The position numbers were made by a program, and so were the translations under genes. A stretch of DNA of 64,000 bases from Amphiscolops sp. MND2022 (lineage: Eukaryota), in the NCBI GenBank assembly GCA_964187785.1, contig OZ076409.1:21082001-21146000 (forward strand), read 5' to 3'. The notes beneath the pieces are model-generated. The model saw only the letters and a program-made list of their open reading frames with translations, was not told the DNA's origin and ran no database searches. Positions within the stretch are counted from its first letter, which is position 1. Each line of letters opens with the position of its first letter. Shown piece after piece: positions 15,891-39,723 of the stretch.

Positions 15891-16539
15891 GCATGAGAGG
15901 CAGAAGTGGAAATCAATAATACAAACAAAAGACCACCAAGTCAAAGACGGGGGCTTCCCACTTTGCCGATTATCCTCTCGGCCGAAAAAAAAAAGAGTTT
16001 CACTTGGCCGAAAAATACTTAGCACTGCAATCTGATTGGCTGACGGGGAACGAAGTTCGTTCAAAGATGAAAAAAATGATTTTTTCAATTGTCTTCTAGT
16101 CAGCTATGTTCACATACTCCTAGTGCCCTAAATGCAGGAGCGAAGCGAAGCGGAGCGACGTGTCATATGGCCACGCCTCAATGTTGCTACTTGGCGAATT
16201 GATTGTCTAAATGCAGATGAAAAATCTAATGGAAGAACATAAATTTCGAAAGAATAGTTCCACAGCTGTGAAATTGCTTGCAAGTGTAAAAATGTTGATA
16301 TATTGCATTCTTTGTGACATAAATATAAAACGCTTTGACCAGTTGTCCTCGTACATCGTCCCATGTTACAAATGCTATTTCGTCTCAGCAGATGCACAAA
16401 TCAAAATTAAAATGTAGTACGTTCTGAAGACCTATATTTTTATGTCGCCTCCTGTCCTACGAAGAACCTAATGTAAGTGAATGATATTGTTGTGATGCCA
16501 TATTTGTGCGGGTTATTTTGTGTTATGTACAATCAGTAG

Positions 16540-18270
16540 TGTCGCAGGCTGCCGCCTGTGACGGTACTTTAATAACGACAACAGCGACAAGCCAGGAGAC
16601 ATTGCCCGGCACTTTGCCTACATTTTAAGCAAGTATATTTTGTATTTCAAAACTTACTTTTAGTAACAATATTTGTCCTCAAACCATTACATTTTCCAAT
16701 ACGTTGCAGTTTATATTAGTCTGTTAATTTTACGATTTGGGACAAGCCAAATCAGTTTGATGATGTATTTATTGTAGGATAGAATTAAAGTGCAAGGTTA
16801 ATTTGACGCAATAACAAACAACAAGCAAGTTAATCGCGAGAAGGAAACGTGTTCAAGTGCGGAAACGTCCTTTCTCGGCGACGTAACTTGTTGTACATCG
16901 ATAACCAATCACATCGTTCCTTTTGAAATGTTGGCGCTTTTATTACATAATGGCCGAATAAGGCCTTTTGACTTAACGCAGTGCACGTTTGCTGGTACTC
17001 ATGTCAAATGGCCGGTTCCGGCCAATTCATGCAATATAGTATTTTGTTGCCTAATTAAGCAAGTAATTACTCGGAGCTAACTTTACATGATTTAAACTAA
17101 ATTAAAGCATTTGCAGCGCTTTAATGTCCGTATAACCTTAACCTAAAGATGGACGATTAAGGCCATCTTACCATGTCTCTTTGAAAGCTGTGTATTTTAT
17201 GATTTTGAGCCTGTTCTGGCCCTAACATGAATGTGCATTCTCACATATATTTAGATTGTATTGAAGCAATATACACGCGATGATGCATTCCATTCTCAAT
17301 AACTCGTGTCGGCACGTGCCTTCACTGCACTCCGCTGTAAAGAATGTGAGCGGAGACATTTGTTGACGCTTTGATATGATGCCTTAGTTAATAACTGATT
17401 TGATATTTCTGTCTTGATCAAACGACTTTTGAATGCCATTCCCTAAATGTCCCCTAATAATATGCGGTTGTCGGGACATTCCCTGTGAAGTAATAAATCA
17501 CATGACCCCATTTTCTTGACTAGTAATGTAAAGTATGTGAATGTCATCCCCTCACGAGTATATATATATACCGATACTCAGCCTGAGTGGGACACAATTC
17601 ATTTGAGACGCTACTAGAAAGATTGAATTACAAACGGCTTCGCTGTTATTTTTTCCGTATTGAATAATTCATTGTTAATTCGGAACTGCTTCTATGCCTA
17701 CTACTAGAAAACAGAAAAAGGCAAGAAAGTCAGAAATGCTGTCAGATATCGAGAACATAGACATTATGTTAGGAGAAAATCATTTTAACACAAGAGAGAG
17801 AGAAGGCAGTTTGAACAGTAACTTGCCTAGAAGGTCCAGAAGCTTTGCAAGCAATGAGTCTGAGAATGAAAATGCAAATGTAAGAAGAAATCAGAGAAAT
17901 GATCACTTTAGAACAAATACCGAATATGATCAAAATTCAGTTACAGCCAACTCTAGTGCTGAGGTTAACAGGTTGTCAAGTGAATTGAATTCCCGCATTT
18001 CAGGGGAAATGGACGAGATGATGAATTCTGTAGGTGTTCAGATTCAGAGGGCCATAAATGATGCGATAAGTTCTCAGGTACTTCCTCAAATCCAAAACGT
18101 TATTATGGCCGGATCGGGACACGGGACCAGAAAAGGATGGGACGTTCCGTCCGAGAGACCGGAACTAAATTCTGAAGTTCAGCGAAACTTAAATGCAAAA
18201 AATAACTCAAGGAATGAACAAGATGGGAATCAGTCAGACAATGATTTTCCTGGGTTAAATGTTCATGACA
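16540..18270 (+). repeat. 5' LTR of element C
   Basis: Matches 30086-31816 with about 13 substitutions counted by eye and no indels. Confidence 0.97.
17558..17570 (+). promoter_or_regulatory. Putative TATA box in the LTR
   Basis: TATATATATA ~130 nt upstream of the gag ATG. The homologous position in element A reads TATAAA. Confidence 0.55.
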
Positions 18271-19365
18271 TGGTGACAGGAGACAACGAATTTCCAAATC
18301 CAGTTCCTGAGTTTCTCACAGGACGAATCTCATCCAGAAATCATCTCGACAGGTCCTTTGAGGACATCAACCTCGACACGACGATCCCAGCACAAGAGAG
18401 AATCGCTACGGCTGCTGACTCCGACCCTATCACTCGACTGGCAGACGTCTTGACTACAATGCAGAATAGACCGACAGCCCAACAACTCACCATACGCCCA
18501 GTCAACTCAAATACCATGACATTCGATGGCAAAAGTGAGAAATTCGAGCTGTTCGAAGACCTATTTCACACTATGATCAAGATGCAGCCAGAAATGACTG
18601 AGCAAATGAAGATCAATCACTTCCACTCTTTATTGAGGAAAAATGCTCTTCAGACATTCAGAAACATCAGCTCAAACAACCGGCAAACTCTAGAGGACGT
18701 ATTAGTCATCTTTAGACGAAAATACGTCAAGTCCGAGTCACAGGCGACCGCCAAACATAAATGGCACTGTCTGGTCTTCGATCCCAACACGATGAAACTG
18801 CCTGATTTTCTCGAAGAATTAAACCAAGGAGCCGAGAAGGCGTTTGGTGATCATGCGCAGAAAATGATTGACAGCTTGCTTTACCCAAAACTGCCACCAA
18901 AACTGAAACGGTCCGTCAACATGGCCAGATTAGAAAATGGCTCCTACGATGAGATAGTTGCTTATTTGGAGAGAGAACTAGAGCTTAACGCCCTCGAGGA
19001 GTCAGATGACCTACCGATAGCCACAATGACCTCCTCGACTACAAAACCTAAAACTCCTCTGTCCACAGGGCAACTGTCCGATATCACTTGCAATTACTGC
19101 AAGGAAAAGGGCCACATGGTCAAAGACTGCGAAAAACTGAAAAAGAAAAAAGAGAAAGATGCCCAACAAGGCAAGTCGACGCAGAAGAAAAAATATCCGG
19201 AGTGCGGCACTTGTGGCAAAAAGACCCACCCAGAGGAAAGATGTTGGCAAGGTGCTGGTGCACATCTTAAACACAAACGCACTAAGCCTGAGGACCCAAA
19301 TGACAATAAGCCCAACATCATCGAGCTCCCAATCCTCATGTTCTAATGTTGAGTCAAAAAACTAA
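17694..19365 (+). CDS. gag: Gag polyprotein (starts inside the LTR; 32-nt deletion near 19315 shifts the last codons)
   Basis: 550-aa ORF with a capsid-like region and two zinc knuckles. The true C-terminus SSSSQSS...ESKN* sits in another frame and matches element A. Confidence 0.92.
18271..18284 (+). promoter_or_regulatory. Primer-binding site of element C (lies within gag coding sequence)
   Basis: TGGTGACAGGAG directly after the LTR, complementary to a tRNA ending CUCCUGUCACCA. Leu-like; identity uncertain. Confidence 0.8.
19356..19362 (+). promoter_or_regulatory. -1 ribosomal frameshift heptamer A AAA AAC
   Basis: Correctly phased just before the gag TAA. The -1 frame (CTA ACT TCG...) is open into ORF 19461-20030. 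Conserved in element A. Confidence 0.85.
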
Positions 19366-22300
19366 CTTCGCCACGACTCCAATATAACGAATTAATATCT
19401 GTCCGACAATACATCAGATCGGACCCTCCAACGCAGACTTTCCACCAATACAATCAGCAATTGATGGGCTATCCCTCTGTTGTCTGGCAGCACCAGATAG
19501 AAAAAGCCACCATCATCACCTACAATAACACCCATTTGTTCCAGAAACCGATTCCTGTTTGGGACCCTGATGACACCACCACCTTCACTACACGGTTCAG
19601 GCCCATTCCCCTGATCGACGATTACAATCCAACATACATCGATCCAGACTACGGCAGAGATCCCTACTGGGACACCGAACTTTACAACCAAGATTCACTA
19701 CAAATTCAAAATGTCCTAGACGATATTGACCATTATAATAGAACAGTCCACGAGAACCCTCCAATTACCCATAACAAGAAAACAAGAGCGCTAATTGAAA
19801 ACTGGCAAATGAATGATGGCACAAACCATCCAGTGTTCCCAAATCCATTGGGGACCGAGACCCATGACAACAATGTTGAACCCATACCACAATCATTGCT
19901 AGACGAGAAACAGTTCCAAAATGTCTTAATCACTAGAGACGGTGAACCAGACTGTATACCCCTATCAACCAACATCAACCTCAAATGCAAAAAACGCATG
20001 TGTATTTCCCAATGGACTTTGGGGAATTGACCATTGACGGACTCATTGACACTGGAGCGCTGTCCAGTGCAATTCCTGAAATGGACCTCCGGAAAATTCG
20101 ACTTTTATCTCCACAATCCGTTATCCGGGAAGGTCCGCCTCCGAATTTCCAAATAATGGTCGCTAATGGGCAATTGGAAACTCCTAAGAGTACAATAGAC
20201 CACAAATTTGAAGTTGGTGACATCGAGTTTCATGAGATCTTTATAGTCATGGAACACCTGACAGGTCCGATTATTGGCCTAATGTTCCTTCAACGAAACC
20301 ATACAGTTCTGGACATGAGACAAGGAATACTGAATTTCCCGTTCTTCTCAATGCAGCTCAAAACAGCTGACCACAAATACTCGAATGTATTAGAACCAAT
20401 TCTCAACCCTATTGAGATAACTATTCCACCAAATGATAGAGTCCTAATTAGGACCAATTCCCTACTGTACCCTGAGAATGCTGTCACTGGAATTTTGCAA
20501 CCGAGCGACCTTCTACATGAAGAGGGCGACATCACATTCTGCCCAGCTCTGATCACTCTGAATGACGGCAATATATTGATACCAGTGAACAATTTTACAG
20601 ACCACCCATATAAACTCAAAAGGGGACTTCATATTGCCATATTCTCTGTAATGACGCCAGAACAGATGAAGTATGTCAAACCGGTAGACCCGGCATCAAC
20701 CTGGCACCTTTTGCAGAATGACCAGGAGCAGGCAGCCCACTATGTCAGCAGTCTCATCAAGACAAACAGAAATCCACAAAACTCCGAAAATTATTGGTTC
20801 CCGACTCCAGAAAATCTTGGAAATCCTGAGGAACACACACCTATACAAAAACGAATCCTTAGAGAATTACAGGCCTTACAGGACTTCGAGACACTCGACC
20901 CCACTACAGATGCAGAATCGCGTGCAAAATTTTTAGAAAACTTTGACTGGAAAGATTCCACCTTTAATCCTGAAGAGAAGAAGAAAATCGAGGAATTGTT
21001 AGTGGAATTCCATGACATCTTTGCACGACACCGATTTGATATAGGCATGAATGAGGAATTCAAGGTGAAACTGACGCCTAAGGACGATTCCCCAGCCTAT
21101 TGTCAAAGCCTTCCAGCTCCTATCAACTTGAAGGAGGACATCCTAGTTGAATTAGCCATGTTACACAAATATGGCATAATAACTACACTGCCATTTTCGA
21201 AATATGCAAGTCCAATATTCGCACAATAGAAGCCGAATGGGAAACTCCGACTCTTGGTTGACTTGAGAAAAATCAACAACCTCATCTCGGATGATTACAT
21301 CAACAATAATCACCCCGTCAGTACACTAGTTGATGCTGCCCAACACTTGGCAGGCAAAAAACTGTTCTGTAAATTAGACTGTTCGCAGGCATACCACTGC
21401 CTACCAATGGCCGACCAACGTTCAATCGAAATGTTGGCCTTCAATTTTGCCAGCCGCACATTCGCCTACAGACGTTTGGCACAAGGCCTTAGCCGATCAC
21501 TATCCGCATTCTCGAGTTTCATGAGGGAATACCTCGACAAAGTCATTAAAGCGGATCAGTGTGCCCAGTATGTGGACGATATCGGCATCGCAGCCAACGA
21601 TGTTGACCACCTCATGACCAACCTGAGAGCTACTTTCAAATGCATTCAGGAAGCAGGCCTTAAGTTAACAATGCACAAATGTCACTTCGGTGCAAAAGAA
21701 ATTGATTTTCTCGGACGGTATATTACCCCACAAGGCGTCAAACCCCAGAAACAGAACGTGCAAAACTTTCTGGAGAAAACCAAATTCCCGAAGTCGAAAA
21801 AGGCTTTACAACGATATTTGGGATTCCTAAACTACTACAGGAATTATGTCCCAAGACTCTCCGAACGCCTTGCTCCATTCTACAAGATGCTCAAAAATGA
21901 CGAAAAGGTCCTAATATCGAAAGAATTAGTCCAACAATTCGAAGAAATCAACAGAGCACTAGACAAATGTTGCGACTTGGCCCTACAGCAACCCATTCCA
22001 AACAAGCAAATAGCACTAATGACTGATGCAAGTTTTGGTGCAGCCGGGTACGCGGTCCTAATCGAAGACGACCCAAGCCAGAAATTTACGTCGCTCAGAA
22101 AATCGTATGCACCAGTCGCATATGGATCAAAAACTTTCACCCCAGCACAGATCAAAATGTCAATTTATGCCAAGGAATTCCTTGCAATCTATTTTGCATT
22201 CAAAGAATTTGGACATAACTTCTGGGGTGCGCCGAAACCGGTCATCATCCTTACGGACAACAAAGCTGTCACGAGATTTTTCCAAACAAAAATCATACCC

Positions 22301-24561
22301 CCAGCCCTGTGGATCGCGTGTGATTATGTCATTCAGTTCAATTTTGTCATAGCACACATCCCAGGGGCACAAAATACAGCTGCCGACTATTTGTCCCGAT
22401 TGGAAGCAGATCCGAAGGACAAATTGGTGATGAAAATTCGTGAAGATGTACAAACACTACCAATCGAAATCAATGTCCAATCCGCAGGGGTGTCACAAGA
22501 AGAACAAATCTTCTACACCAATGACGACGATGAGACAGAAGAACAGTATTGGGCAAGAAAAGAAGCAATCAGGAAAAATCCAGCAACTGATGAGCCCACT
22601 GTTACTATACAAACTTTGTCAACAAATCTGGTCAAGCAACACCCCGATATACAAATCCGATTGAAGAAAACGAACCAGATCATTATTGAGCAATCCAAGG
22701 ATGCAGTACTACAACAATTGAAGGCAAAACTCCTTCATGAAGATTATTCAGAAAACATGCTGCAACAGGATGCCCGATACAGACACTATGCAAATAATCT
22801 GGAACGAATTGTACTAAAGGACGAAATCCTGACAAGGCAATACTTTGATAAAACAGGGAACGTTAAATACCATCAAATTCTGCTCCCGCAACATTTGCTT
22901 CAGGAACTGCTTAAGTCTCTCCACGGGACAGCACATAAACATCCTGGGATTTCAAAAATGTTGCAGGAAATTAGACAGAGGTATTACTACGCTAGCATGG
23001 CTAAACACGTCAAAAAGTGGGTAGAAGGGTGCGAACAATGTGCCAGAGACAAAAGAGTCCCTAACGCAACGATAACACCTGAACTACTCAACTTGCCCGA
23101 ATGGGACCTTGGACCCGAAGACGCCATGCAAATCGACCTATTGCCGAATCCTCCCCCAAGTGGAGGATATGAAAATGTCCTAACGGCAATTGATGTATTC
23201 TCCAGATATTTGTTCGCCTATCCCCTCACGGACGCATCAGCGATCAATGTAGCAAAAGCGGTCATTGACATTATGACTAAACACTCATATCTACCAACGA
23301 CTCTTATCACTGATAAAGGTACTGCATTTACTTCTACAATTATTGCGGAGGTTACGCACATTTTGGGCATCACACTCAAATGTGCAACGACGAAACACCC
23401 GCAGACAATTGGGAAATTAGAGCGAACTCATGCCTCATTGAAAACAAATCTCAAAATGGCATGTGGAGAATATCGCCGACAATGGCACAAATACTTGCCA
23501 TTAGCAGTACTGAATCATAATACTAGTTATCACGCCAGCATCGGTTGTGAGCCTACGAGGGTATTCCACGGAAGAATTCCATTTAATATTTTGGATCACA
23601 AGCTTGGAAATAATCCAACGAGCAGATTAACCCCACAACCGAATTTGCTGAAGAAATCCAAAACCGGACAAAAATCCTGATTGACAAAACGAAACAGAGC
23701 ATTATGCAGTCGTATATCAAGTACAAAGAATATTACGACCGCAAAGCAAAAGCCGCTCCACTAAAGGAGAACGAATATTGTTTTGTCTTACAGCCGAAAG
23801 CGGACAATCAAGGATCAAAAATTCCATTCCGCGATTACCGTTGGGTGGGACCATTTGTAGTCCAAAAGGTTTTGCCAAATGAAAACTATATAGTACGACG
23901 GATCAATACGAACAAAACTCAAATTTTGCATCGCATTCGCCTTAAGAAGTTTGTCCCCAATCAACCGATTGAGGATAATTTCCGACAACAACAGTTGCAG
24001 CCAGATGAAGAATTTGTCATTCCGCAAGATGGTTTATACGTCATAACGTGGGAAACCGACTTTGGCGAGCAGCTAGTTACACGAGGCCGCGAGACTATTC
24101 CGACCAGCATGCCGAATGGCGAACGGCCGAACGCGCCAGAAGCGAATACAAAAGACGTAGCCGAGAATGAAGCGGATTACATAATCACGACTGACGAAAC
24201 AAGTTACGCTGACCACGCGGCGCGGAACCGGAATGAAAGATTAAATCATGACGTCACAAAAAAGAATGAAGCTAGTGAAGCGGCTAGCAATGACAAATCT
24301 GATTGGCCGAATCCGGCCGTTTCCCCAAAAAACCAAGAAAATTCATTGCCGAATACGGCAAATAGACCGGAAAACAATGAAAATTTTTCAGAAAGAAACT
24401 TGACGAATGAAAACGATACACAAGATTCTCCAAATAGGGGGGATGATATTATCGTGCCCGAAATATCCGAAAACGATGCTTGAAATGAGAGTCTGAGCCC
24501 TAGAGGAGGGAAATATAATCTCAGGCCTAACCCAAACTACTCAGAGGATTTTAGATACTAG
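19362..24561 (+). pseudogene. pol: Pol polyprotein: protease, dUTPase-like insert, RT, RNase H, integrase with GPF motif and acidic tail; mildly disrupted
   Basis: Motifs LIDTGA; YVDD; TDAS, KEFLA, TDNK; HHCC and D-D-E (QIDL, TDKG, LERT); WVGPF; ends YNLRPNPNYSEDFRY*. Lesions: 1-nt deletions at ~20001 and ~23617, stops at 21227 and 24481. Confidence 0.95.
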
Positions 24562-24779
24562 GAAAGATTGAATTCGGCTCTAGAAACGAGCCATGAACTT
24601 TTTCCTTCTATCTTTTTTTTTCCAGAGACCCAAACATCATTTTTTGAACAAATAATGGGACACACGAACGACCCCAGCAAAGATAATAAATACGGGGTAC
24701 AGAAACAAAATGGAAACAAATGAAATAACAAAATGAACAAATTTACAGTCTGAAGGTGTACAAATATACAAATGTACAC

Positions 24780-27700
24780 TTAAGGTTTAGAAGTTCCTGG
24801 GGCAGACTCCCCAACCACGGACGAAGCAGAGGATCGGGATCCACTTTTCTCCAGTCTTCTGCGTTTGGTACTACTAGGGAGCTTCAATGCACTCTCATCC
24901 GCAACAGAATCATCCATCCCGCCGCGGGCAGGAATTTTCTCCGGAGCAGCTAGCACAGTGCGGTAGGAGGACGACAAAGACTTGTAAATCTTGGATCTCC
25001 CAAAATTGTCAACATAAGTCCAAGGGTCATAACTGGGAGAGAAGGCTGACTGACCAAAGGATGCACTGAGCAAGGAAAACCTCGCCAAACTTGAGTCGTC
25101 ACTGCACAGAGTTGAAGAACCGGACACACCAGCCATGTAACTCTGGCAAGGGAGTATAACATCAGTAAATCTGCTATGCCTCCCAACAGTCGAAATCTTT
25201 CCAGCAATGACGTCTGGATAGTCAGGACTAGGTGTTGTAACGCACAGACAGCACAACTTAAAGAGGTATAACAAATAGCCTCGGGCCTGGAGAAATTCCA
25301 AATTGAGCAGGAAATCAATCAGATCAGAAGATGAATTTGACAGATCATAATCTGGACCTTAGCTGATCTGCAGGTGGTCGAGCAACTCAGTATATTGGTC
25401 CCGACAAGCTGACTCGTTAGCTTCGGCAACCCAGGAACGGAGACAGAAGGTACTATATAAGAGGTCAAAATGGCGGAGAGCCACCTCAGTTGGTCTCTTG
25501 AACAAGATGTACGGATCAAAAGTAGCGAGGCCTTTAATAATATCTGAACTCAGACCAGTCTGGCAAAGCACCGAGTTAATCAGATACTGGATGTAATGAA
25601 GTGCATCATTGACGAACCCAGTTTTCACGGTAGTAGCAGTCTTCTGGATAGCTGCCCGCTCCGACTTCTTTCCAAAGTGAAGCCCTTCGGCCCTAGCCTT
25701 ACTGGAAGTGGTCACTTTGTTGGTGAGCTTGAGCCGTAGTAGGAACTCATCTTCAGCCATGAAGGTAGCTTCACTCGTATGGAACTTCAGCAGCAGGAAC
25801 CAGGCATTTTCTAATGGGGCAGTGTCAGAGGTGTAACAACGGGAACACAGTTTGTATAAAAACCGGCTAGTTTTCCCGCATAGGAAGAAGGAGGCGTCTC
25901 GTCTGTATAAGAGATTCACTTTGAAACTGGATACATCTACAAACACAAACCAATGATGGCCTCATAAGGCCTACTAACGAGGATCAACTCACTATTTGCG
26001 AATACTAACAATCTCCAACGAGCTTGCAGAAGAACTCCAACTTCACTACGAAGAACTCATCGCAGATGAGGGACCATTCGAAACTTTGCACCTAAAAAAC
26101 AAAGTGGAGGAATGAATCCCTAAACTACCCCCTTCGTATGGTCCTAAGGTGAAAACCTGACTAATTAGCCCGAATCACAAAGCACACATGAAAACAACTA
26201 ACTCTATTGTGTGATCCCTGTCCTTCTTGTCTGGGTGCATGGACGGCTAGGTACCGAGCGATCGCCTTCCACTCAGCTATAAGTTCCCTGCACAGTGTAG
26301 GAACCATCAGTAGTTCCAGCTTATGGGAAGCGATAGCCTAAACATGGGAAGGCACGTGAACCAATGAAAAGGTTTGCTACCACGCCAACCCATTCCCTTT
26401 AGTATGATGCAGTTCACTGTGAAAATAAAGATGAGAAGGCTATCTACCTTGGAGAGTTCCGGACTGCGTAGAGCCCATTCCTCGTTGAGGGATCCACCCA
26501 GAGACACTAGCAGGGCTTGAAGCACGGAAAAGAAATCCAAGTGTCCAAAGACACTACAGCTAGACTTGTGCATCAGATACTGCAAGGATAGGCTCTCGAA
26601 CCGGAAACAACTTTGAACTCCACAGGTGAAAAATTCGGAGCAATCGACGACTCGGATCAGGTCAGCCGGACATCCAGAACAGGCCACGATCTCACAACGG
26701 GTAGACGTCACAGAAAGGAGCCGGGACAAAGACCCTAGCTCTCCAGCCAAATCAGTTGAGGGTAAGGAGCTTCGACAAATGTATACGCGACATAGTTCTG
26801 TGCCTCTCCAAAATCGAGCAGACATGTAGCAGTAGACCCCCTTGCTCTCGAATTCGATGCCAAAACACTGTTGGGTCATTATCTGGTCTGTGACATCTCC
26901 CATCACGGAGTTGAAGATGTGTTGGAAAATCGCCTGAGAGGGACAGATCAGACTTATCTTAAATAGATTAAGACTCAAGGAAGTGCCCTAAATGATAGTA
27001 CTTACAGATAGACACTCTTCGCTCAATCGAAATCGCAGAAAGCAGCCTGATGATTAGTATAGGAGCCGACTCTGGCCCACAAATTGCGCAAGACTGAGAG
27101 GTTACCATGCGTGTGGATGAAGTCTCCAATCAGACACAACTGCGTTCGGGAACGGGATTCTGGAGTAACCACAGCAGTTGTCGTACCCTTTATGAAATCT
27201 TCATAAAATGGAAATCGTTCTCCAACGTCAACGAGCTCTACATGGATGAACTTGGGAAGTTCTTTCGCTAACTCTATCTTTGTCAAGATTTTTCCATTCC
27301 ATCCTCGGACGCGGTGCTGGATTCTTCCGCTGACTGGGTCGGTGCTCTTTAAGTGCTCGTATCTCCACCGCTCATCGCGTCGGAGATGCCTTTCTGAGCG
27401 GTGGTGACGAAGTATCTCAAATGCTCCTTTTGTTTTGATGGAAAAGTTTTTCTTGCACATATGACACCAGACCATGAGGGGATTGTGCAAAGGATCTGCT
27501 GGGCCTGATATAAAGGAGCGTGTCTAGCCAATTTTCGCAAAAAATTCTTCTCTCATTGGAATTCCACGTTGGGGCGCTCGTCTCTCCCTTTTCTGCATTT
27601 TAGATTTGACAGATTTTTGGTCCCTGGTCTCTTTGGTTTTCTCCTGTATTTCCAACAAGGTAGCGTCCTGACTGCTGACCCCACTATTCTCGGTTTCAAC

Positions 27701-28917
27701 GGTCCGTTGTTCGGACGGGTGGACCACCGTGGAAGAAGAGGCTTGGGGTAGTGTAGGTGTCTGCTCGAAGGTCTCCGAAATTAGAGCCATCTCCGTGGCA
27801 CTATCGCTCTCACCAAGGAAAGAAGACTCTCCTGTGCCCCCTGAGCTTTCAACCCCAGTCTGGGTATTTGGATCACTATCCGTCTCACTCATGCTCGATT
27901 CATCTCCATATCCCGAGCGGGTGTTTGGGCTCGTCCTCTACTCTGAAAATGGGCTGTTTTTGATGGGGCAACAGCGGGGGTTCCTCTGACGGCATCCAGG
28001 ACCATCCGTTCCATTGTTGAATATGACATCCGCAAAGTCGCGTCAGTGAGCACTCTGAGGAGGTTATACACTTGTGTTTCCGTAAAAGCTACCGCTGGAT
28101 GTCCAACGGGTAACCTGAAAGACTTGTTCTCTTCAAAATATTGTTTGAGCAAGGCCCTGCTCCGTCCTTATAATTGGGGAAGTCCATCAATCTCCACGGG
28201 CACACCAGGTATCCTTGCCCCACTCGGTCCTTGATGTTGTGTACAGAAACCGAGTTCGTCTCCTCCATCGGTTCCTGATTCCATGTCCACCGGGTTGCGT
28301 CCATAAAACTCAAAGACGTCGAAATGGGACGTGTCCTCAGCAGAGCTGTCTTGTCCACTATGACTGGGCGGGAAGTAAGTTTTGGGTCGCCCACTGGGCA
28401 AAGCAGGGGCATCTTGAACTGACGAAGTAGTATCCTCGCCTGCTGGATCAGGAGCTTGTTCTTGCGTTGATAATGTCAAATCTGATGTCAAACGCAGTTC
28501 CGGCAGTTGAGAGCCAAGAGTAGTGGCAACGTGTAGAACGGATTCAAGTCCAGATAGATTGGCAACGGGATCTCTATGTTTGGGAGATGATATTGGGGTA
28601 CTGGACCGTTCAATTCCCTGATTAAGACTGGCATCTAAAGAATCCAAAAGTCCAAGGTCCTGACCGGGAATAGCACTCGACGTCGATACAGCAGTGAGTT
28701 GGCTAGTCCGCTCTGCCCGTTCAATCTTCTCAACAACGGACTCAGCATAAGCAGTGACATCCTGCTCACTATCCTGGCTAAGTGGGGAAAAGTCTGGGAG
28801 GGGTAGTGGTGCAGGAGCGTTACTAGAAACTGCCTTCCCAGATCCGTCATCGGCAATTACCGTCTTCACAGACTCGATAGCTTGAGATGAGGTTGGTGCT
28901 TCAAGGTTTTCTGCCAT
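24780..28917 (-). CDS. Antisense spliced cargo gene: disordered N-terminus, BED-type zinc finger, degenerate hAT-transposase-like body, C-terminal NLS (this copy is disrupted)
   Basis: Exons 28917-27006, 26933-26448, 26337-26203, 26091-26010 and 25936-24780, joined by four GT-AG introns that keep the frame. Contains WCHMCKKNFSIKTKGAFEILRHHRSERH and KRRRLEK. In-frame stops at 28168, 27524 and 25359; frameshifts at ~27915 and ~27023. Confidence 0.8.
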
Positions 28918-28989
28918 CTGATTCTCTAAACAGAAGGGAATAAAATGTAGCGGTATGCTTCCTTGATAGTAATCCATTTACCGCGTTAG

Positions 28990-29045
28990 AAATCTTCCGG
29001 AAGTTCTCTCAAATGCAAATGGAACACGTGATCACGTGTTCAACA
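28990..29045. promoter_or_regulatory. Motif cluster in the divergent spacer (putative internal bidirectional promoter)
   Basis: CTTCCGGAAG palindrome (28994-29003), octamer ATGCAAAT (29013-29020) and perfect 20-bp palindrome GAACACGTGATCACGTGTTC (29022-29041). Confidence 0.55.
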
Positions 29046-29388
29046 AAAGAAACAGGAAGCAATTGTGAACAAATTTCAGTCCTGATCAAACTGAGTTTGT
29101 CTGAAAATATTATAGAAAACCAAACCAACCTGAGGCTGACATTCTGAGTCAAGAAGGCAAATCCGGGTAAACATCAGGTTATCAAAGGGAGCTGACTAAT
29201 TATGAAATTCCATTCAAGGATGTTTGTGACGAATCGGGGCAATTGACCAAAGTTTTAACCGCCAAACTGAAACTTCGGGAAAAAGCCTAACTCGGCTAGT
29301 TTCTTGGTTCAGACGAATTCATTCTACCTAAAACTTCATCTCAACTCAGTTGCCTCTACTAGCTTCAAAAATAGCAAAGAAAGTCATC

Positions 29389-30174
29389 ATGAACAAATAT
29401 AACCTCGCAAGGAAACTATTCGGTCTGGAAGAATCTGACTCTGATGATTCTGAGAGATCAGTTATATATATATCGAGCAGCGAGGGAGAGTCATCAGATT
29501 GGGAGACCGACTGTTCTACAGACACGGAGCAGCTTGTTGCAAGAATCGAAAGAGAAGTCACCTCCAGCCCCGTGCTAATTGGGGGCCGCATAATGACTAT
29601 GGAGGAATCTTCAGAAGACGAACCAGAAGCTGGCCCCAGTTCTTCCCAGATACGAACAGACATGACTCCGAAGTTTGACCACAAGTACTTTGACGAGGAG
29701 ATGTGTTACGCTCCCCCAAAGAAAGCAGGCAAATCTCGGATTGAAATTTGCAAAACCCTAATGCCCGTGCCAGAGTCGCCTATGTCACCGCCTGATCACG
29801 AAAGAGGGCCGAGTATGGACACCCCCCTGATGCAGCCTGGTATGGGAGGTTTTCACGCCTCCTACCACGTGCAAAACACCAGGCCCTACGAAAATATTAG
29901 CACGAAGTTATATTCAGGATGCATGGTCTGTGGCAGATCCTCAGAGGCTATCAAGAAAGAGAATGTGGAATGGTACGTCGCAAGGTCCAAGCCTAGAGGG
30001 GAACCCGAATACATAACGAAGATCAGAAGGGAAGCGTACGAAAAAGGACTAAACCCAGGCGCTTTTCTCTTCATAACACCCGCAGTGTCGCAGGCTGCCG
30101 CCTGTGACGGTACTTTAATAACGACAACAGCGACAAGCCAGGAGACATTGCCCGGAACTTTGCCTACATTTTAA
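29389..30174 (+). CDS. ORF3: acidic, Ser/Pro-rich 261-aa accessory protein ending inside the 3' LTR
   Basis: Intact ORF from ATG 29389. The last 89 nt lie in the LTR and are conserved, mostly with synonymous changes, in the element A LTR. Confidence 0.82.
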   Translation: MNKYNLARKLFGLEESDSDDSERSVIYISSSEGESSDWETDCSTDTEQLVARIEREVTSSPVLIGGRIMTMEESSEDEPEAGPSSSQIRTDMTPKFDHKYFDEEMCYAPPKKAGKSRIEICKTLMPVPESPMSPPDHERGPSMDTPLMQPGMGGFHASYHVQNTRPYENISTKLYSGCMVCGRSSEAIKKENVEWYVARSKPRGEPEYITKIRREAYEKGLNPGAFLFITPAVSQAAACDGTLITTTATSQETLPGTLPTF

Positions 30175-31816
30175 GCAAGTATATTTTGTATTTCAAAACT
30201 TACTTTTAGTAACAATATTTGTCCTCAAACCATTACATTTTCCAATACGTTGCAGTTTTTATTAGTCTGTTAATTTTACGATTTGGGACAAGCCAAATCA
30301 GTTTGATGATGTATTTATTGTAGGATAGAATTAAAGTGCAAGGTTAATTTGATGCAATAACAAACAACAAGCAAGTTAATCGCGAGAAGGAAACGTGTTC
30401 AAGTGCGGAAACGTCCTTTCTCGGCGACGTAACTTGTTGTACATCGATAACCAATCACATCCTTCCTTTTGAAATGTTGGCGCTTTTATTACATAATGGC
30501 CGAATAAGGCCTTTTGACTTAACGCAGTGCAAGTTTGCTGGTACTCATGTCAAATGGCCGGTTCCGGCCAATTCATGCAATATAGTATTTTGTTGCCTAA
30601 TTAAGCAAGTAATTACTCGGAGCTAACTTTACATGATTTAAACTAAATTAAAGCATTTGTAGCGCTTTAATGTCCGTATAACCTTAACCTAAAGATGGAC
30701 GATTAAGGCCATCTTACCATGTCTCTTTGAAAGCTGTGTATTTTATGATTTTGAGCCTATTCTGGCCCTAACATGAATGTGCATTCTCACATATATTTAG
30801 ATTGTATTGAAGCAATATACACGCGATGATGCATTCCATTCTCAATAACTCGTGTCGGCACGTGCCTTCACTGCACTCCGCTGTAAAGAATGTGAGCGGA
30901 GACATTTGTTGACGCTTTGATATGATGCCTTAGTTAATAACTGATTTGATATTTCTGTCTTGATCAAACGACTTTTGAATGCCATTCCCTAAATGTCCCC
31001 TAATAATATGCGGTTGTCGGGACATTCCCTGTGAAGTAATAAATCACATGACCCCATTTTCTTGACTAGTAATGTAAAGTATGTGAATGTCATCCCCTCA
31101 CGAGTATATATATATACCGATACTCAGCCTGAGTGGGACACAATTCATTTGAGACGCTACTAGAAAGATTGAATTACAAACGGCTTCGCTGTTATTTTTT
31201 CCGTATTGAATAATTCATTGTTAATTCGAAACTGCTTCTATGCCTACTACTAGAAAACAGAAAAAGGCAAGAAAGTCAGAAATGCTGTCAGATATCGAGA
31301 ACATAGACATTATGTTAGGAGAAAATCATTTTAACACAAGAGAGAGAGAAGGCAGTTTGAACAGTAACTTGCCTAGAAGGTCCAGAAGCTTTGCAAGCAA
31401 TGAGTCTGAGAATGAAAATGCAAATGTAAGAAGAAATCAGAGAAATGATCACTTTAGAACAAATACCGAATATGATCAAAATTCAGTTACAGCCAACTCT
31501 AGTGCTGAGATTAACAGGTTGTCAAGTGAATTGAATTCCCGCATTTCACGGGAAATGGACGAGATGATGAATTCTGTAGGTGTTCAGATTCAGAGGGCCA
31601 TAAATGATGCGATAAGTACTCAGGTACTTCCTCAAATCCAAAACGTTATTATGGCCGGATCGGGACACGGGACCAGAAAAGGATGGGACGTTCCGTCCGA
31701 GAGACCGGAACTAAATTCCGAAGTTCAGCGAAACTTAAATGCAAAAAATAACTCAAGGAATGAACAAGATGGGAATCAGTCAGACAATGATTTTCCTGGG
31801 TTATATGTTCATGACA
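30086..31816 (+). repeat. 3' LTR of element C (carries the ORF3 C-terminus and a second copy of the gag N-terminus, 31240-31816)
   Basis: Direct repeat of 16540-18270, followed by the TSD AGTAG. Confidence 0.97.
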
Positions 31817-33826
31817 AGTAGCATCCTTACAGTTCTGGGGACGTGGTCTAGATCTAGATTATATTGTTATTTCTTGCATTGGTGGCCATTTAGAGCTTCA
31901 TAACAAATTGCTGGCGTGTAAAATTTTTTAAATAAACAATTTTAAACGTGCAGTATGGTGATATTATTATTTTCTTCTATTGACTGTATTGTTGACTTCT
32001 CTTTCCCAAATTGTACATTTTTTTCCGCGTCTGTTAGTAAGATTGAAGTATTTTAGTGCCAACCTTGGTTTCAGGGACCCCAAAAGCTCAAAAGGTCTGG
32101 CATTGAAGATGAGGAGATCCGGAAGCGAAACTGAGGCAGGAAGTTTGAGTTAACTTCCTTCATGTAGTGTGATCATACTGCCAACTTGAGTCGAATAATA
32201 GTGTATGAATTGAGAGTCCCGTCTTGCAGAGACGCCGGGTTCAACGAGGTGTGAATTCAGAAGCGTGATCTTCATCGCGCGACTAGCGCAAAGTATTTAT
32301 ACCTGACCCATGATCTGATAGGTGGAGTTTGTTTGGATAAACGTTCCGAAAAAATTGCCCAACTTACAGTTATAGTGAAACCAACTCCAAAGAAACGTTC
32401 CAAGTCTTATTGAAAACCTTCGAAAACTCTTTTTCGTATTTAAAGATGTCTGAGAAGACTCAGAAACATAAATTGCGACGAAACTTTTCCGATATGTATC
32501 AATTATTGTATCAATTAGAAAAAATGTAAAATATACAATTGTAAAATTGATACAATTAATTGTAAAGGAAAATTGTTTCTAGGAAATCTTAATATAGGAC
32601 ACGGATTGTTCTTGAAAAATCTTTTTATCCACCAGCTTCTGCCTCAAACAATTCTATATCATCAAACCATATGCTATTTTCATGCTTGCAAAGATACGGG
32701 AAAGACTGAACGACTCTTTTTTGGGTTTTTTGGCACAATCCGGTTTTCTTTCTAACTTTTGAAGTGGAGGCATCCCATGAAAGTTCAGCAGAAACAAATC
32801 GCATTACAAACGCAGAGGACCCTCTCAGTGACTTTCTACACTGTAAGCTTACCGAAGTATAATGATCCGAAGCTACTTTTGTTTTTTAAGGTTTTCGGTT
32901 AAACAAAAAGTTTTTCAAGTTTCAAGGGCGACTTCTTAGGATAGTTTTTGGTTCTGTGGGACTAATGAGTGTTTTTTCAACGGATATGAAAACACATGCG
33001 CTTTTTCCGGCTCTATGCAAGAGCGAGCGACTTTTTCACTGGAGTTTCACTGCTCCAATTAAATTCAGAAGTTTAAACCTCTTCTGACATGGAGCGGCTT
33101 CATTACGGAAGAACGACATTATTTTCTTAATACTGTATGCCCGTTTGCTTCTTATATACGTTATTAATATTGTTCATTTTGAATATATACGACACTTCTG
33201 ACAATGCGTGAAATAGTTCGAAAGAAAAACCATTTTTACGCACGGAGCGCGTTTTTGTATTTTTTATCGTTTTAATTAATAAAACACTGTTAGTATGGTG
33301 TTTTTCGATTTCAGTCTTAATTTTTTCCAGACCACAGAGCTCAAACTGAAGGTCCACTTTCAATACAGACTTTGTTCACGTCGTTTGCTTTGGTTTACCG
33401 GCGTGGCCAGAGCTGCTTCCTTAAGCCGAACGACAAATTCGAACGGCCTCATTTTATTTATAATCAAGAAAAATGTGCTTCGTAACTTACAGGAACTTTC
33501 ATATAGTTCAAGCAGCTCCAACAGAGACGAAAATGAAAATACAATAATGGTAGTTTTTACTCACATGAAACTGATAAATCGATAAAATTACGTTTGGTCA
33601 AGGAGAAGACTCCAATTCCATCTGGTTAGTTTGCGTTTTTGTTACAAAATGCGTCCGAGTCTTACAGAGACAAATTTTCGAAGACGCCTCCTCTTTTAAT
33701 AAAGCGCAATATAGTTCGGATATAACGTCAAAAGTTCGGATATAGCGTTTCAAATCGAATATGAAATTGGGACCCTTTAGTCTCCGGTTTTGTAGATAAC
33801 ATTAAAAAAGTAAAAAATTGAAACGG

Positions 33827-36800
33827 TGTCATATTCGGTTCATTCCGGTTTGACCTCTACCGAGTTTCGGTACACAAAACTGTATGTCTAGATGTCTAGC
33901 CTACCTGTTTATTGATAAACAAAAATTTGCTGCGCATTCAATTAGATACTGCAGTATATACATTTGGTATCTACAGTATAGTCAGTGAACTATAGAAATT
34001 ATCTTAACACTTCTTTTAACCTAGAGCTTAGTTGTTGAGAATAGAACATGGAGCAGTCAGCCCATTTTTAAACAAATTGTAAACTTCATAACAAAAGAAA
34101 GCCATGACAGAAAAAAACACAGTACCGAACCTAGACGCAAGGGCTTTGGACGGAAATGCAATATTCACACAGAGACAGTGGTTGGAACGATTCCGGCAGT
34201 TCACTAAACGGGAACATAAAAAGTCCCACCACTAATGAAAGGAAAAGACATCACAGTAAACGAGTGGATCGTTAAAGAACAGCTTATCCTGGAAGATTTC
34301 ATCTGGGGTGTGGGACCCGAAGCACTGTACCGAATAACCCGTGCCAAGTATAAAACGGAAGCGGACATTATCAAAATAAAGGATTTAATCCGGTTATTCA
34401 CCGAATACTACTTACCGAAACGCAATACCCATCACCGTCGCGGCAATTTTTCTGGGCAAATCAAACGGAGGAAGAAACACCCGAAGACTTTTGGAGAAGG
34501 TTAATTGAAATCGAAAAATAATGCAATTTCAGTACATAATCAGCTGGAGAGCTACTGATTTCCAAACATATGACAGCTATCACCGACAAAAAATTTACAG
34601 GACAAAATGATGAAAAAAAACACTGGAACTGAGGAAGACGATCGAACTAATCAACTGAACAAATATGAAAAGTAGAACAAGAAAAATACGATACCAGAGG
34701 CACTAATTTCGGCAAAAGAAAGACACATGATAAAAAAGAACCGATACAGAGAATGGAAATAAATGTTCGGTGCGAAATCAAAAATTAGACCGACCGGAAA
34801 TATACCATGCAGATTTTGTGGAGCTCCGAACTCAACATCATTACATAAATGCCCAGCAATAGACATAAATTGCAACAAATGCGGAAAAAAGGACAGTACG
34901 CAAAGGTATGCAGACAAACATATACCAACAACCGAACAGTGAAAAGACTAACCGCAGAAGAAACTGGTGACCGAGACGAAACATCAAGTGAATCATAAGA
35001 GAGCATACACCACATCAAAGCGACAAAGAAAAATTAAGAAAAGAACAAACAATTCATGGCAACAGTGAAAATAAACGGAAGAAAGAAAGACTTCATATTC
35101 GATACCGGATCATCGATATCAATAATGCCAGCGGCCGAAAACGTATTAGAGCTAACCGGGATACAAAAAGTCACAAACAGATACCAAGACGAGAACAAGA
35201 ACGAAGTAAAGTTCCGAGGAAAAGTCCCCGTAGACATGGAATACGAAAATAACAAACAAAAAATATGTTTCCTGATAATCGAAGGAACAGACATAACACC
35301 ATTACTAGGGATGGACTGGATGAGAAATAGCAAGCTAACAATCGGTAAAATACAATGGGCCGAAAATAACCAGTCAGAACGCAAGAAAGTCTTCAACAAT
35401 TTTCCGAACCTGTTTGAAAATATCGAAACAATAAAAGACACCGAAATAAAACCCAACAAAAAGCCAGACCGGTACCGTTTCACCTACAAGACGACGTAGG
35501 ACGAGAACTAGAAAAATTAAAAAAGACCGGATGTTTGGAATAGATCAATGACGTCGATGAAGATTGCTTTGTATCACCGTAGTAATAACTGTAAAAAGTG
35601 GTAAACCGGTAAAAATAGCATTAGACTCACGGAAACTAAACGACAGTTGTACCAAAATGAGACCACATATGCCGAACATGGAGGAGTTATTAAACCAAAT
35701 TTCGGAAGAAATCACACGCGACCGAACAGTACAACTATTTATAACAAAAACAGATTTAGATTACGCATACGGACAGATGAAATTGTCCGAAAAAACAAGC
35801 CGACAATGCGTATTTGCGATAACCGAGCGTTAATTTAACGGATACTACCTATTCAAAAAAAAGTTCTACGGTCTCTCCGATATACCAACGATATTTCAAG
35901 ATACAATTGACCGAACACTCGGATACAGTACACCAGCTTGGTTAGACGACATCATTGCAGTAACCCGGGGGATCAAACAAAAACACGAGAAAAAACTATT
36001 TGATAATCTGATCAAACTAGAAAAAGCCGGAAACCGAGCGAGTAAAAGAAAATCTGAATTTTTTATGAATCAGACGAAGTGGTTGGGCCACGAGATTGAC
36101 GAAAATGGAATAAAACCTTTTGAAGAAAACGCAGAAGCCAATTCAAAACTGAACCCACCGCAAGATACAAAAGAACTGAAATCACTTCTCGGAGCAACAC
36201 AATACATGACAAAACTTTTGCCGAAACTTTCGGAACGAACAAATAGACTCCAAAAACTACTGAAGAAAAATGGAACGTGGAATTTGGGAACCGAACAAGA
36301 AGAATTTGGAAAAAAAAACAAATGTTGACCGAAGGCCCATGTCTAGCACACTACGCAAACGAAAAAGAAAAAATAGTAACGACCGACGCAAGTTCAACCT
36401 GACTGGGAATTACACTATGGCAAAAACAAGAGGACGGAATCACGAAACCGATAGCATACGGGAGTCGATATTTGAATGAAACCGAACAGAAATATTCCAT
36501 CGGTGTACTAGAATTAGTGGCAATGGTATGGGGATCAGAAAAATTCCAACTTTATTTATATGGAAAAAAGTTCTTTACACTTTACATCTTTACACCGACC
36601 ACCAAGCACGCACTAGAATCATTGATAAAGAGAAACCGAAGCAATAATCAATACAATGCGAGATTAGCGAGATGGTTGGACCGCCTAACTCATTTCCATA
36701 TAGCAATACAGCATATCGCAGGCAGCATTTTGAAATTTACCGACCATCTCAGCAGAAATCCGGTAAGGGGAGCATCGCCGGAAGAAAATACGATGAGAAG

Positions 36801-39616
36801 AATACGTAATTAATATACTCGTCGAAAAGTCATACTTAAACTTGAAATACGGACGACTCTTCACGGACCAATCAAAATGTAGGCAAACCATATCCGAAAG
36901 AAAGAAAATTGAGCACAAATAGAACCAATCACAAGCGAATGGAACATTCGAGAACAAGAACCACGTGAACGAAACCAAACAGAACAAAATAACAACATCC
37001 GGGCAATTCGATATTAGCACTCTGACATTCAGTAAACTGAGCAAAGAAAACGAAAGTGAGAAAATGGATCGTGAAAACTTTTACCATTGGGGGGGGCTAC
37101 CAGAGAAATCATGAACAATATTAGAAGAAGGAACTACAGACCCGAAGCAAAAAGATTGGTGGAGCAGCGAAACGCATTATCACGGTCGGGAACATTGAGA
37201 CGCCGGTACGACCATCAAACACAAAGAACCATCTTTGCACCATCCTGACCAAACAGACGGAGTAGAGAAGAAATTGCCGAGATAGATGCGTATCTTATCC
37301 GGAGAGCGAACAGAATTGGAGGCGGTTATCAACCGATAGAGATCGAGGAACAGCAAGAAGAACCAAAAGAAATACGGGAAGAAGGAGAGATTTCACAAGC
37401 AGCCGAGACCGAGGAAGACAGCGCGATTATGCTGGGCGACAATTAACAATCGTGAATTTGCCAAAATATAATTATTACCGACGGTAAAGAAGCGAAATAC
37501 ATACAAAAAAACATCGTCGGAAAACTCACCACGAAGAAAAATCAACTGAAGACTTCATCAAAAAAGCGGAATTCGAGTTCATGATTGATCTAAAATTTTT
37601 GATCTCCAAAACAGCGATTGACCTCGAGCTAGCCCGAGTCAGAACCAGTATGCGCCGAGGGGACATGAAGACGATTCCAGATGGCTTTCTAGCAGTGTTC
37701 GACAAACTCTTAATCAGATGGGGGCCTCATATTTGTCGACGACCAAATCGTTATCCCGATAGACTTCTGAAAACGACTACTGGTATCTTGAATTTCGGTC
37801 ACTCCAGCATCACCAAAATGACGTCAGAAGCAAAAAGTACTTTGGTGGTCGGGCATGAAACAAGATATCGAGAACAAGGCCAAGGACTGCACCGCATGCC
37901 TAGCATCAGGTAAAGGCCCTAAAAACAAATTATCGAAAACTAGAAAAATTATCCAAACCGTCAAGAAATACGAATAGATTTCACCGGAAAGTTACAAAAC
38001 AAAATGTTACACGGCGAAGTGCAAATATTAATAGAGGTAAATAGATTCAGCAAATGGCCTACCGTAAAAACTTGCAAAACCTCGAAGGGGTAATCAATTT
38101 TCTTACGAGTAACTTTGATTTATACGGAATACCCGAAAAAAACAGACCGACAAAGGAGGAGCATTTATCTCGAAGAAATATAAACAATTCTGTAAAAAAA
38201 CCCGAAACATTGAAATATACTATTGTACACCCAGAATGCACACCGGAAACGGAGTAGTAGAGAGATCGAAACGAACACTGAAAAATTTGATAATGGCGAA
38301 TCTAGAAGACGGACAAAATTTAACCGAAAGTGTAAACCGAGCATTACGGGTAATGCACTTCACAATACATACCTGATTGAAAATAACACCGTTTGAATTA
38401 CATCACGGAAGAAAACCGAGAACCGAATTAACGAATATCGTTAGAAACGGAAACCTTTCTTGTCTAATTGGTCTTGGTAGAAAATTTCAGCACCGAGCAG
38501 ACCGAAAACACCAGTTTATGTGGGCAAAGATGCGGATGGAAAAGTAAAAAACCACATAATCATGGCAAAAACCAAGACCGAGGAGAGACAGAAGAATGAT
38601 GGTCAGATGTCACCAAAAAAGAAAAAATTGGTTAGATATCCCTTCTATTTTGTTGAAACGATTTACCAGAAAAAATCAGTAGAAGGATATTTTCAAAATA
38701 AAATATTAACCGCAGTAAGGGGGACTGAAAGTACCGTGAAAACGGACACCAGAAAAATAATCAACCAAAAATTTTTTCGGACCCATTATTTCAGACCGAA
38801 CGAAGAACGAAAAGGGAGCCGGCAATCAACGCAAGCGCCTAAATCAACCCGAAGAATAGACATTGTCTACGGGGCTTGGACGGCAAGTACGGACGCTGGG
38901 ACGAAATACTCTGTGATATACTAAACGGAAAATTGAAGATCGTCTATAACCGGAAAGCAACCGACACCGAGGCAGACGATGACGATGAGGATGACGGAAA
39001 ATTTCCGGAACGGAACGGAACACCGATTATCTATGATATTTCCAAACGCGACGGAAGGTACGCACCCATATGGACAAATCCGGAAGAGGATGCACTACAA
39101 ATTCACACAGATATCTGGTAAGAATTTAGAAACAAGTACAAGGCGATCAAATCGAAATAGCAAAAAACCGAATAGATACGACAGCATACCATATACTGGA
39201 ACTTTCTGGAGCTAGAAAATATAGGGATAAACATGTATTGTTTATAATACTGGAAACCCGTGGACCAGAGCGAAAGGGACACCATAACCGGAAGAGATCC
39301 AAAAGCCATCAGATTTTCTATCCGGAGACGAAACGCCAAATGGGCCCTCCAACCGAGTTTGGGAAGGAGAAGAGAGATGAGGAAATGTCATATTCGGTTC
39401 ATTCCGGTTGGACCTCTACCGAGTTTCGTTACACAAAACTGTATGTCTAGATGTCTAGCCTACCTGTATATTCTGTTTATTGATAAACAAAATTTTGCTG
39501 TGCATTTAATTAGATACCGCATTATATACATTTGGTATCTACAGTATAGTCAGTGAACTATAGAAATTATCTCAACACTTCTTTTATTCTAGAGCTTAGT
39601 TGTTGAGAATAGAACA
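33827..39616 (+). mobile_element. Decayed Ty3/Gypsy LTR retrotransposon, element D (5.8 kb)
   Basis: LTRs 33827-34048 and 39386-39616 (TGTCATA...AGAACA). PBS TGGAGCAGTCAG. Purine tract 39361-39385. Imperfect 4-bp TSD (ACGG/AGGG). Confidence 0.92.
34104..39215 (+). pseudogene. gag-pol relics of element D
   Basis: Fragments FIFDTGSSISI (protease), ALDSRKLN/DLDYAYGQ/WLDD (RT), TDAS and YSIGVLEL (RNase H), and integrase remnants. Numerous stops and frameshifts. Confidence 0.88.
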
Positions 39617-39723
39617 AGGGGGACGCTTTGCACTAAGTTTCCACCGGCCGGACTTGGCCTCAGTAGTTTTAGTAGTTTCTGTAAAAAGTGGACCGATCAG
39701 TGTGAGGTCTGTGATCTGGAGAA

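Follow-up and report, generated by a model that had tools for sequence, protein, structure and literature searches.

The window (the whole 64-kb stretch of DNA analyzed here) contains, at positions 16540-31816, a 15.3-kb Ty3/Gypsy LTR retrotransposon that carries the gene of interest, ORF3. The LTRs occupy 16540..18270 (5′) and 30086..31816 (3′), both on the forward strand; the 5′ copy is 1731 nt long with ends TGTC...GACA, and the pair shows 13 mismatches over 1731 nt. A 5-nt target-site duplication, AGTAG, is present on either side (16535-16539 and 31817-31821), and a TGG-starting sequence resembling a primer-binding site lies directly 3′ of the 5′ LTR (18271..18288, forward strand); no tRNA genes were found within the 64-kb window. 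Immediately before the 3′ LTR (30056-30085) the DNA is pyrimidine-rich and codes for ORF3: there is no polypurine tract in the window's clade; a short G run is present in the other two clades. The LTR ends, the target-site duplication and the order of the Pfam matches (protease-RT-RNase H-integrase) all fit the Ty3/Gypsy group, to which the element belongs.

On the forward strand gag (17694..19346) begins within the LTR; its frame stays open for 550 codons, with the last ∼10 shifted, and stops short of the gag-pol junction. In a sister copy its product gives a weak zf-CCHC match (E 0.003, below the cut-off) and a match to DUF1759 (Pfam). The pol gene (19353..24483, forward strand) is broken by two frame changes and one stop. 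An intron-containing gene on the opposite strand (24780..28977), also broken in this copy, encodes a C2H2/BED-like finger; a short intergenic region (28978..29370) separates it from ORF3, with which it is arranged head-to-head. ORF3 itself (29389..30174, forward strand, from the first ATG) is open for 261 codons, or 267 amino acids if read from a likely ATA start further upstream, and extends 89 nt into the 3′ LTR, the first 89 nt of which are its C-terminal codons. Each LTR overlaps genes at both ends, with the ORF3 tail at its 5′ end and the gag head at its 3′ end: the 5′ LTR includes the start codon of gag and, from ORF3, the final 89 nt of the frame, ∼190 gag codons lie inside the LTR, and the gag start at 17694 recurs at 31240. 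This overlap is identical across all three clades of the family. The gag N-terminus (17694-17735) is basic and ends in ARKS, partly kept in other clades as ARKS or SRKS; this resembles the histone H3 tail around K9, and it could be just a nuclear localization signal.

The same layout, with the antisense gene between pol and ORF3 and head-to-head with the latter, was found in 21 elements belonging to three clades. A second, inverted member of the family occupies window positions 1-6820 on the reverse strand (86% identity over gag-pol, 76% over the LTR), its own ORF3 falling outside the window (locus L075). At 33827-39619 lies a smaller LTR element with LTRs of ∼230 nt (91% identical) and decayed pol frames. 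Two arrangements elsewhere in the genome depart from the common plan. One element at 47.79 Mb (L073 4118-10000 plus L074 1-1844; G000:C1) has ORF3 repeated five times in tandem as part of a 1545-nt unit, the units being 99.8-99.9% identical: either a genuine amplification or an assembly artefact. At L069/L070 (G000:C10:10.22-10.24 Mb) ORF3 and LTR-like DNA are repeated at a distance of 14.4 kb around a different pol (25% identity); here the antisense gene finds no match and the LTR starts with CG instead of TG.

An earlier note on this DNA had picked out four short motifs in ORF3, and all four occur, at the positions it gave, in the open 261-codon frame: ARKLFG (29407-29424), RSVIYISSSEGESSD (29455-29499), PESPMSPP (29770-29793) and CMVC (29920-29931). 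In the acidic tract to which the second belongs, residues 12-60 have a net charge of -12. The same note described ORF3 as the only undisrupted gene of the copy. This is nearly right, given the shifted end of gag and the broken pol and antisense genes, but it is uninformative: by our count the remaining ∼10.7 kb of coding DNA contains ∼9 breaks, which predicts ∼0.7 per 0.8 kb, so that the chance of none in ORF3 is about even and its intactness here says little. We therefore rejected the idea that selection kept the window copy of ORF3 intact, since chance suffices. That ORF3 is not env, as also claimed, holds: its maximum 19-residue hydropathy is 1.31, its N-terminus is not hydrophobic and it matches no Pfam family. 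Among near homologues the hydropathy maximum has a median of 1.31 and a highest value of 1.52, and among distant ones it ranges from 0.82 to 1.61, on a hydropathy scale rather than by a dedicated predictor. With a hydrophilic N-terminus and no membrane-length hydrophobic stretch, an env identity was rejected.

ORF3 is abundant. Five subfamily queries returned at least 146, 143, 139, 148 and 59 scored matches in the genome (G000), that is, more than 600 genome-wide if the five sets are taken as non-overlapping, as their identity ranges suggest. By our own count 121 of the 146 matches to the first query contain no stop, a figure biased by the fact that these are the best-scoring copies. Protein searches returned 191 and 245 homologues. 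We refer to 72 full-length proteins with at least 50% identity, among 120 listed of the 191, as near homologues, and to 10 near-full-length proteins with 26-37% identity, hand-picked among 150 listed of the 245, as distant homologues. Some distant homologues lie on contigs of 1-4 kb and two loci come from metagenomes, so that the family likely occurs in further species.

Purifying selection is evident from comparisons between copies: by the Nei-Gojobori method, 11 pairs from different subfamilies have dN/dS values of 0.024-0.13, and two close pairs have 0.19 and 0.25, with five of 18 pairs saturated and values at dS above 2 being rough. Trees of ORF3 and of RT (the latter a quick one) return the same three clades among the 21 elements, with between-clade identities of 30-39% for ORF3 against 82-86% for RT. 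ORF3, which lies between the 3′ LTR and the antisense gene, is thus co-inherited with RT and under purifying selection.

Attempts to assign the protein to a known family gave nothing. Pfam returned no family for ORF3 at E values up to 1, and for the 10 distant homologues just sub-cut-off matches (E 0.004-0.04) in two. The AlphaFold2 model is poor (mean pLDDT 54.8); Foldseek at E 0.001 found no match to it, and the best hit of a wide structure search reached Z 3.3, for which reasons we give ORF3 no fold. An Atlas search with residues 112-261 led to one unnamed cluster at 0.75, searches of PDB sequences with three queries (A1, A2, A3) gave nothing below E 0.2, and query P0159 found nothing in G000 at E 1e-60. 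Neither ORF3 nor the antisense exons match the Pfam family Transposase_28 (TRP28). As far as sequence comparison reaches, ORF3 matches no named family, and is not env, a CIP/KIP protein or TRP28.

Chance levels for the short motifs were estimated from 20,000 shuffles of the ORF3 protein. As the phospho-SIM pattern we took a hydrophobic core, [VI][VI]x[VIL], with serines and acidic residues after it. The SIM core with serine and acid arises in 5.5% of shuffles and the bare core in 41%; RxLFG arises in 0.14%, [RK]xLF in 3.5%, a loose ELM-type cyclin pattern in 55% and CxxC in 11%. At such frequencies a lone motif is weak evidence, and conservation decides.

On this measure the SIM-like motif of the acidic tract stands up. 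It reads VIYISSSE (29461..29484, forward strand; residues 25-32), a hydrophobic core followed by serines and an acidic tail, in a stretch predicted to be disordered (pLDDT below 50 at residues 15-38). The core with the Ser-Ser pair is found in 68/72 near and 6/10 distant homologues, and the string SS[DSE] in all 10 of the latter; three of the four distant proteins that have no hydrophobic core at this position carry DxDI[EQ][VE][IF] further on, a second SIM-like stretch. Both metagenome loci have PIYLSSD. S29 and S30 are invariant in all 23 aligned ORF3 proteins. The codons for this pair are drawn from both the TCN and AGY boxes, which places the constraint on the protein. Columns 24-30, spanning the SIM core, are 95-100% identical, against ∼50% at residues 12-23. 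The proposal of the earlier note that this is a SUMO-interacting motif thus came through the comparison of homologues, and we consider it likely that ORF3 binds host SUMO by means of it.

Conservation does not begin at the first ATG. In every clade the codons that precede or span this ATG specify (K)IAKK, a hydrophobic pair and, after it, one basic and one aromatic residue; in the window this peptide lies in frame at 29368..29388 (forward strand), in the context AAA-ATA-G, with the ATA at 29371. The pattern was found at 73 of 87 loci, the 14 missed including copies with a changed SIM, copies with a frameshift and six others; the peptide is present also in metagenome locus L160. In the 46 distinct contexts compared, the first Met lies mostly 6, 10 or 13 codons from the Ile codon, a spacing that differs by clade, and amino-acid conservation starts at the Ile codon. 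This codon is ATA in 25 contexts, ATT in 19, ATC in one and ACG in one (a metagenome locus). There is an A at -3 in 46/46 and a G at +4 in 44/46. The Lys codon that precedes it is AAA in 43/46 and never AAG, whereas the next two Lys codons are AAG in 34/89 (Fisher p 2e-7, with contexts treated as independent of kinship). An in-frame stop is found within five codons upstream in 13/46 contexts, and there is no upstream ATG. A splice acceptor was considered as the origin of the peptide and is not preferred, because YAG is not constant: it occurs within 15 nt in just 28/46 contexts and is absent from whole subfamilies. With neither an upstream ATG nor a constant acceptor, near-cognate initiation at 29371 is the simplest account, and on this sequence evidence translation of ORF3 probably starts at the ATA, upstream of the ATG. 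An alternative explanation for the upstream conservation is an element acting at the level of DNA or RNA, for example an initiator or a splice acceptor of the antisense strand.

The remainder of ORF3 contains two further conserved regions. A cluster of proline-directed phosphosites, [ST]PxSPP (29776..29793, forward strand), is kept in its relaxed form in 62/72 near and 10/10 distant homologues, and P131 and S133 are invariant. The C-terminal domain (29920..30111, forward strand) comprises CxxCG (62/72 near, 10/10 distant), a predicted helical hairpin at residues 185-220, which is the sole confident portion of the model, and SQAAACDG. C121, H160, C178, C181 and C239 are kept by every one of the 23 aligned proteins, with C121 and H160 appearing, by eye, to be lost in locus L161; C178, C181 and C239, together with C121 and H160, are likely candidates for zinc ligands. 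The codons of SQAAA are nearly fixed at the DNA level and those of C-D-G vary synonymously; being nearly fixed as the LTR end, the SQAAA codons were rejected as evidence of constraint on the protein. Inspection of the alignment by eye revealed no LxCxE motif. The label of accessory protein given earlier to ORF3 is supported: the LTR element carries in ORF3 a conserved gene other than env, whose product combines short motifs in disordered sequence with a small Cys-containing C-terminal domain.

The intergenic region of the window copy lacks ∼610-690 nt present in sister copies (junction 29164/29165). The missing DNA includes two AAnATGGCG motifs, which we take to be YY1-like, and because of its absence the window copy of ORF3 may not be expressed. 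At 29020-29044, just upstream of the antisense gene, is a palindrome, GAACACGTGATCACGTGTTC, with two E-boxes; it is common to the e39-type cassette. The antisense gene of this copy is of a different subfamily type from the adjacent ORF3. Its exon 2 is 95% identical to that of element e39, and 59-66% identical to that of elements whose ORF3 is 85-95% identical to the window's: judged from these identities, elements of the near clade exchange the antisense cassette irrespective of their ORF3, which argues against a tightly matched ORF3/antisense pair.

As to what the antisense gene encodes, the protein has a finger-like C/H pattern, and an Atlas search matched it at 0.91 to Dimer_Tnp_hAT clusters, with recognition 1881 and fewer than 170 common features, values that are weak by the tool's measures. 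A poor model shows strand-strand-strand-helix-strand-helix-strand, an RNase H-like order. Inspection by eye for a DDE catalytic triad showed no Asp in the expected strands and no ERxFS motif. Profiles of the exons against 10 hAT loci and nine long hAT frames of G000 gave no match (best E 0.004, to an unrelated stretch), and a structure search with the exon-2 model (pLDDT 52.5) returned no transposase, its best hit reaching Z 5.2. The suggestion that the protein is a catalytically dead relative of hAT transposases is weakly supported.

As to the function of ORF3, we put forward a reading tentatively and at somewhat short of an even chance: ORF3 may be a small nuclear adaptor that binds SUMO via a CK2-type phospho-SIM and helps the element to escape SUMO-dependent silencing. 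ORF3 would be transcribed from an internal divergent promoter and translated from the near-cognate AUH codon, and ribosomes that pass this codon by leaky scanning would start at the downstream AUG and produce a shorter form. Its phospho-SIM would bind SUMO and bring the protein to SUMO-marked chromatin; the SS[DE]EE and SPxSP sites would provide phospho-control and the zinc-bound C-terminal domain a binding surface. Brought to the chromatin of its own element, perhaps jointly with the finger-carrying product of the antisense gene, ORF3 would there compete with SIM-bearing silencers, for example of the SetDB1/Wde type.

The host has components on which such a mechanism would draw. A SUMO gene is present, as are two zf-MIZ loci, Piwi-domain genes and a weak SETDB1-type Tudor match. 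The closest named relatives of the SUMO are from Convolutriloba (83%) and Symsagittifera (80%), which makes the host a likely acoel. Apart from these genes, host frames at L099 955-2487 and L101 949-2466 fuse several ubiquitin-like repeats to a C-terminal domain with an HGT...Y-like motif, reminiscent of ADP-ribosyltransferases. SUMO-dependent recruitment of SetDB1/Wde is reported to silence piRNA targets in Drosophila (10.1101/533091), and the phospho-SIMs of PML, Daxx and PIAS1 are described as tuned by CK2 or phosphorylation (PMC4276917). A complex prediction for a host-type SUMO (P0316, 12-94) with ORF3 residues 10-60 scored 0.00, run without alignments and with the fold of the partner uncertain, and so speaks neither for nor against binding. 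Several points weigh against our reading. A SIM indicates affinity for SUMO and not the direction of the effect, so that ORF3 could recruit repressors or be parked in SUMO bodies; an acidic, Ser-rich tract with hydrophobic residues also fits an activation domain; and L069/L070, with ORF3 and no antisense match, speaks against a paired function.

The second of these leads to the best of the alternatives, that ORF3 is a transactivator of the Tas/Tax kind, in which the acidic N-terminal half, with its scattered Trp residues, would activate, the Cys-containing helical C-terminal domain would bind the LTR or a host factor, and the SIM would tune activity or be incidental. W38 is conserved within the acidic N-terminal tract, among other hydrophobic residues, and the position between pol and the 3′ LTR, with overlap of U3, is like that of the transactivators of complex retroviruses. 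ORF3 identity also tracks LTR identity among near elements, as physical linkage alone would predict too. However, the folded part has no conserved basic tract for binding DNA or RNA, and the strongest N-terminal constraint falls on the SIM core and Ser-Ser rather than on acidity overall. We regard a transactivator as unlikely, while recognizing that it overlaps with the SUMO adaptor and that both may hold.

The earlier note had read ARKLFG as a cyclin-docking site, which could couple transposition to the cell cycle. RKLF (29410..29421, forward strand) fits the strict RxL consensus (PMC12356897), as do 66/72 near homologues, which also fit [RK]xLF; L10 and F11 are conserved at 93-95%, and the SP/TP sites are conserved as well. 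It is confined to one clade, however, with 0/10 distant homologues having it after the ATG, so that as a family-wide feature the motif fails. The full RxLFG is present in 26/72 near and 0/10 distant proteins, the Gly being kept in just those 26, and 18/72 have Lys, Gly, Thr or Ile where the Arg would stand. An N-terminal LxF, described as an atypical cyclin B motif (PMC12356897), does occur in 4/10 distant proteins, KKLF occurs in several of the upstream peptides, and viral precedent exists in HCMV pUL21a (PMC4231158); but a full [ST]Px[KR] CDK site is present in 0/72 near homologues, the motif region is predicted to be helical (H3-10, low confidence), and in a large screen under 15% of the strict RxL matches proved to bind a cyclin (PMC12356897). 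ARKLF or LARKLF moreover resembles a second copy of the IAKK(L/I)(F/I/L) helix that precedes it in all clades. Thus, despite the RxLFG string that the window copy has in common with p21 and p27 of the CIP/KIP family, ORF3 differs from these in having no CDK-inhibitor Pfam domain after it (E up to 1), in the inconstant Gly and in the absence of the motif from two of the three clades. The cyclin link is weak, and cyclin-CDK docking as the function of ORF3 decidedly improbable.

A Rev-like factor governing export or fate of the genomic RNA through phosphorylation and a Cys cluster has a potential model in CERV of the C. elegans element Cer1. Like ORF3, CERV is a non-env accessory protein of an animal Gypsy element and has conserved cysteines; it is described as nuclear and phospho-regulated, with a possible C4 finger (PMC10309623), and ORF3 has invariant Cys residues, SP sites and a basic N-terminal helix. 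CERV nonetheless differs in position, size, origin and its formation of rings, differences that are drawn from its description: it has 517 amino acids, comes from an mRNA spliced with gag exons and is mostly structured, and the main text of its description has no mention of SUMO (PMC10309623). ORF3 is about half as long, lies 3′ of pol and is mostly predicted to be disordered, and the introns seen in its element lie on the opposite strand. Such a role appears very unlikely. Just as doubtful is a self-limiting repressor in which SUMO would bring silencing onto the element's own family, alone or with the antisense protein: such SIMs are typical of the repressors Daxx, PIAS1 and PML (PMC4276917) and we infer that a family of more than 600 copies would gain from restraint, but very young subfamilies with intact ORF3 are widespread, with many near-identical matches and LTR pairs 99.8-99.9% identical, and the fast divergence of ORF3 between clades relative to RT fits host conflict, disorder explaining part of it.

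Returning to the SUMO adaptor, a bolder version would make ORF3 an ancient counter-silencing gene: a non-AUG, two-isoform, CK2-tuned SUMO-binding adaptor encoded head-to-head with a disarmed DNA-transposase relative that provides DNA targeting. In this full form we think the proposal rather unlikely. Viral immediate-early SUMO antagonists and plant anti-silencing proteins of the VANC type are its proposed counterparts. Adenovirus E1A and HPV E7 are likewise small, motif-rich regulators that pair their motifs with a Cys/Zn domain. With PML, Daxx, PIAS1 and HCMV pUL21a, ORF3 has in common an acidic, disordered build of short motifs and CK2-type serines (PMC4276917, PMC4231158); the likeness to phospho-SIM proteins and viral regulators is one of motif design only, no homology having been found.

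Extra reading frames after pol and before the 3′ LTR are themselves known: they are common in plant and fungal Ty3/Gypsy elements, where their function is described as open and a regulatory role has been proposed (PMC7264820, PMC11963269). Grande, RIRE2, Retand TRP28 and the env-like ORFs resemble the present family in having a long region between pol and the LTR with conserved extra genes, one of them antisense, in most copies. In contrast to these, the ORF3 element is from an animal and carries a divergent gene pair; ORF3 is on the sense strand, has no TM helix and no match to TRP28 or other Pfam families, extends into the LTR, and has both a motif of phospho-SIM type and what is likely a non-AUG start. 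In the portion of the literature that our search covered there was neither a SIM protein encoded by a retrotransposon nor a paper on this acoel element family. What is new is the graded conservation of the SIM and cyclin motifs and the likely non-AUG start upstream.

Two consequences follow. If, as seems likely, ORF3 starts at a non-AUG codon, then annotation based on ATG drops an N-terminal segment common to all three clades. The other concerns the host. LTR elements are reported to make up about half of the genomes concerned (PMC9911081), and SUMO is described as one of the core components of the transcriptional silencing that piRNAs guide (10.1101/533091). Should ORF3 bind SUMO and relieve silencing, it would represent a transposon counter-measure aimed at the SUMO step.
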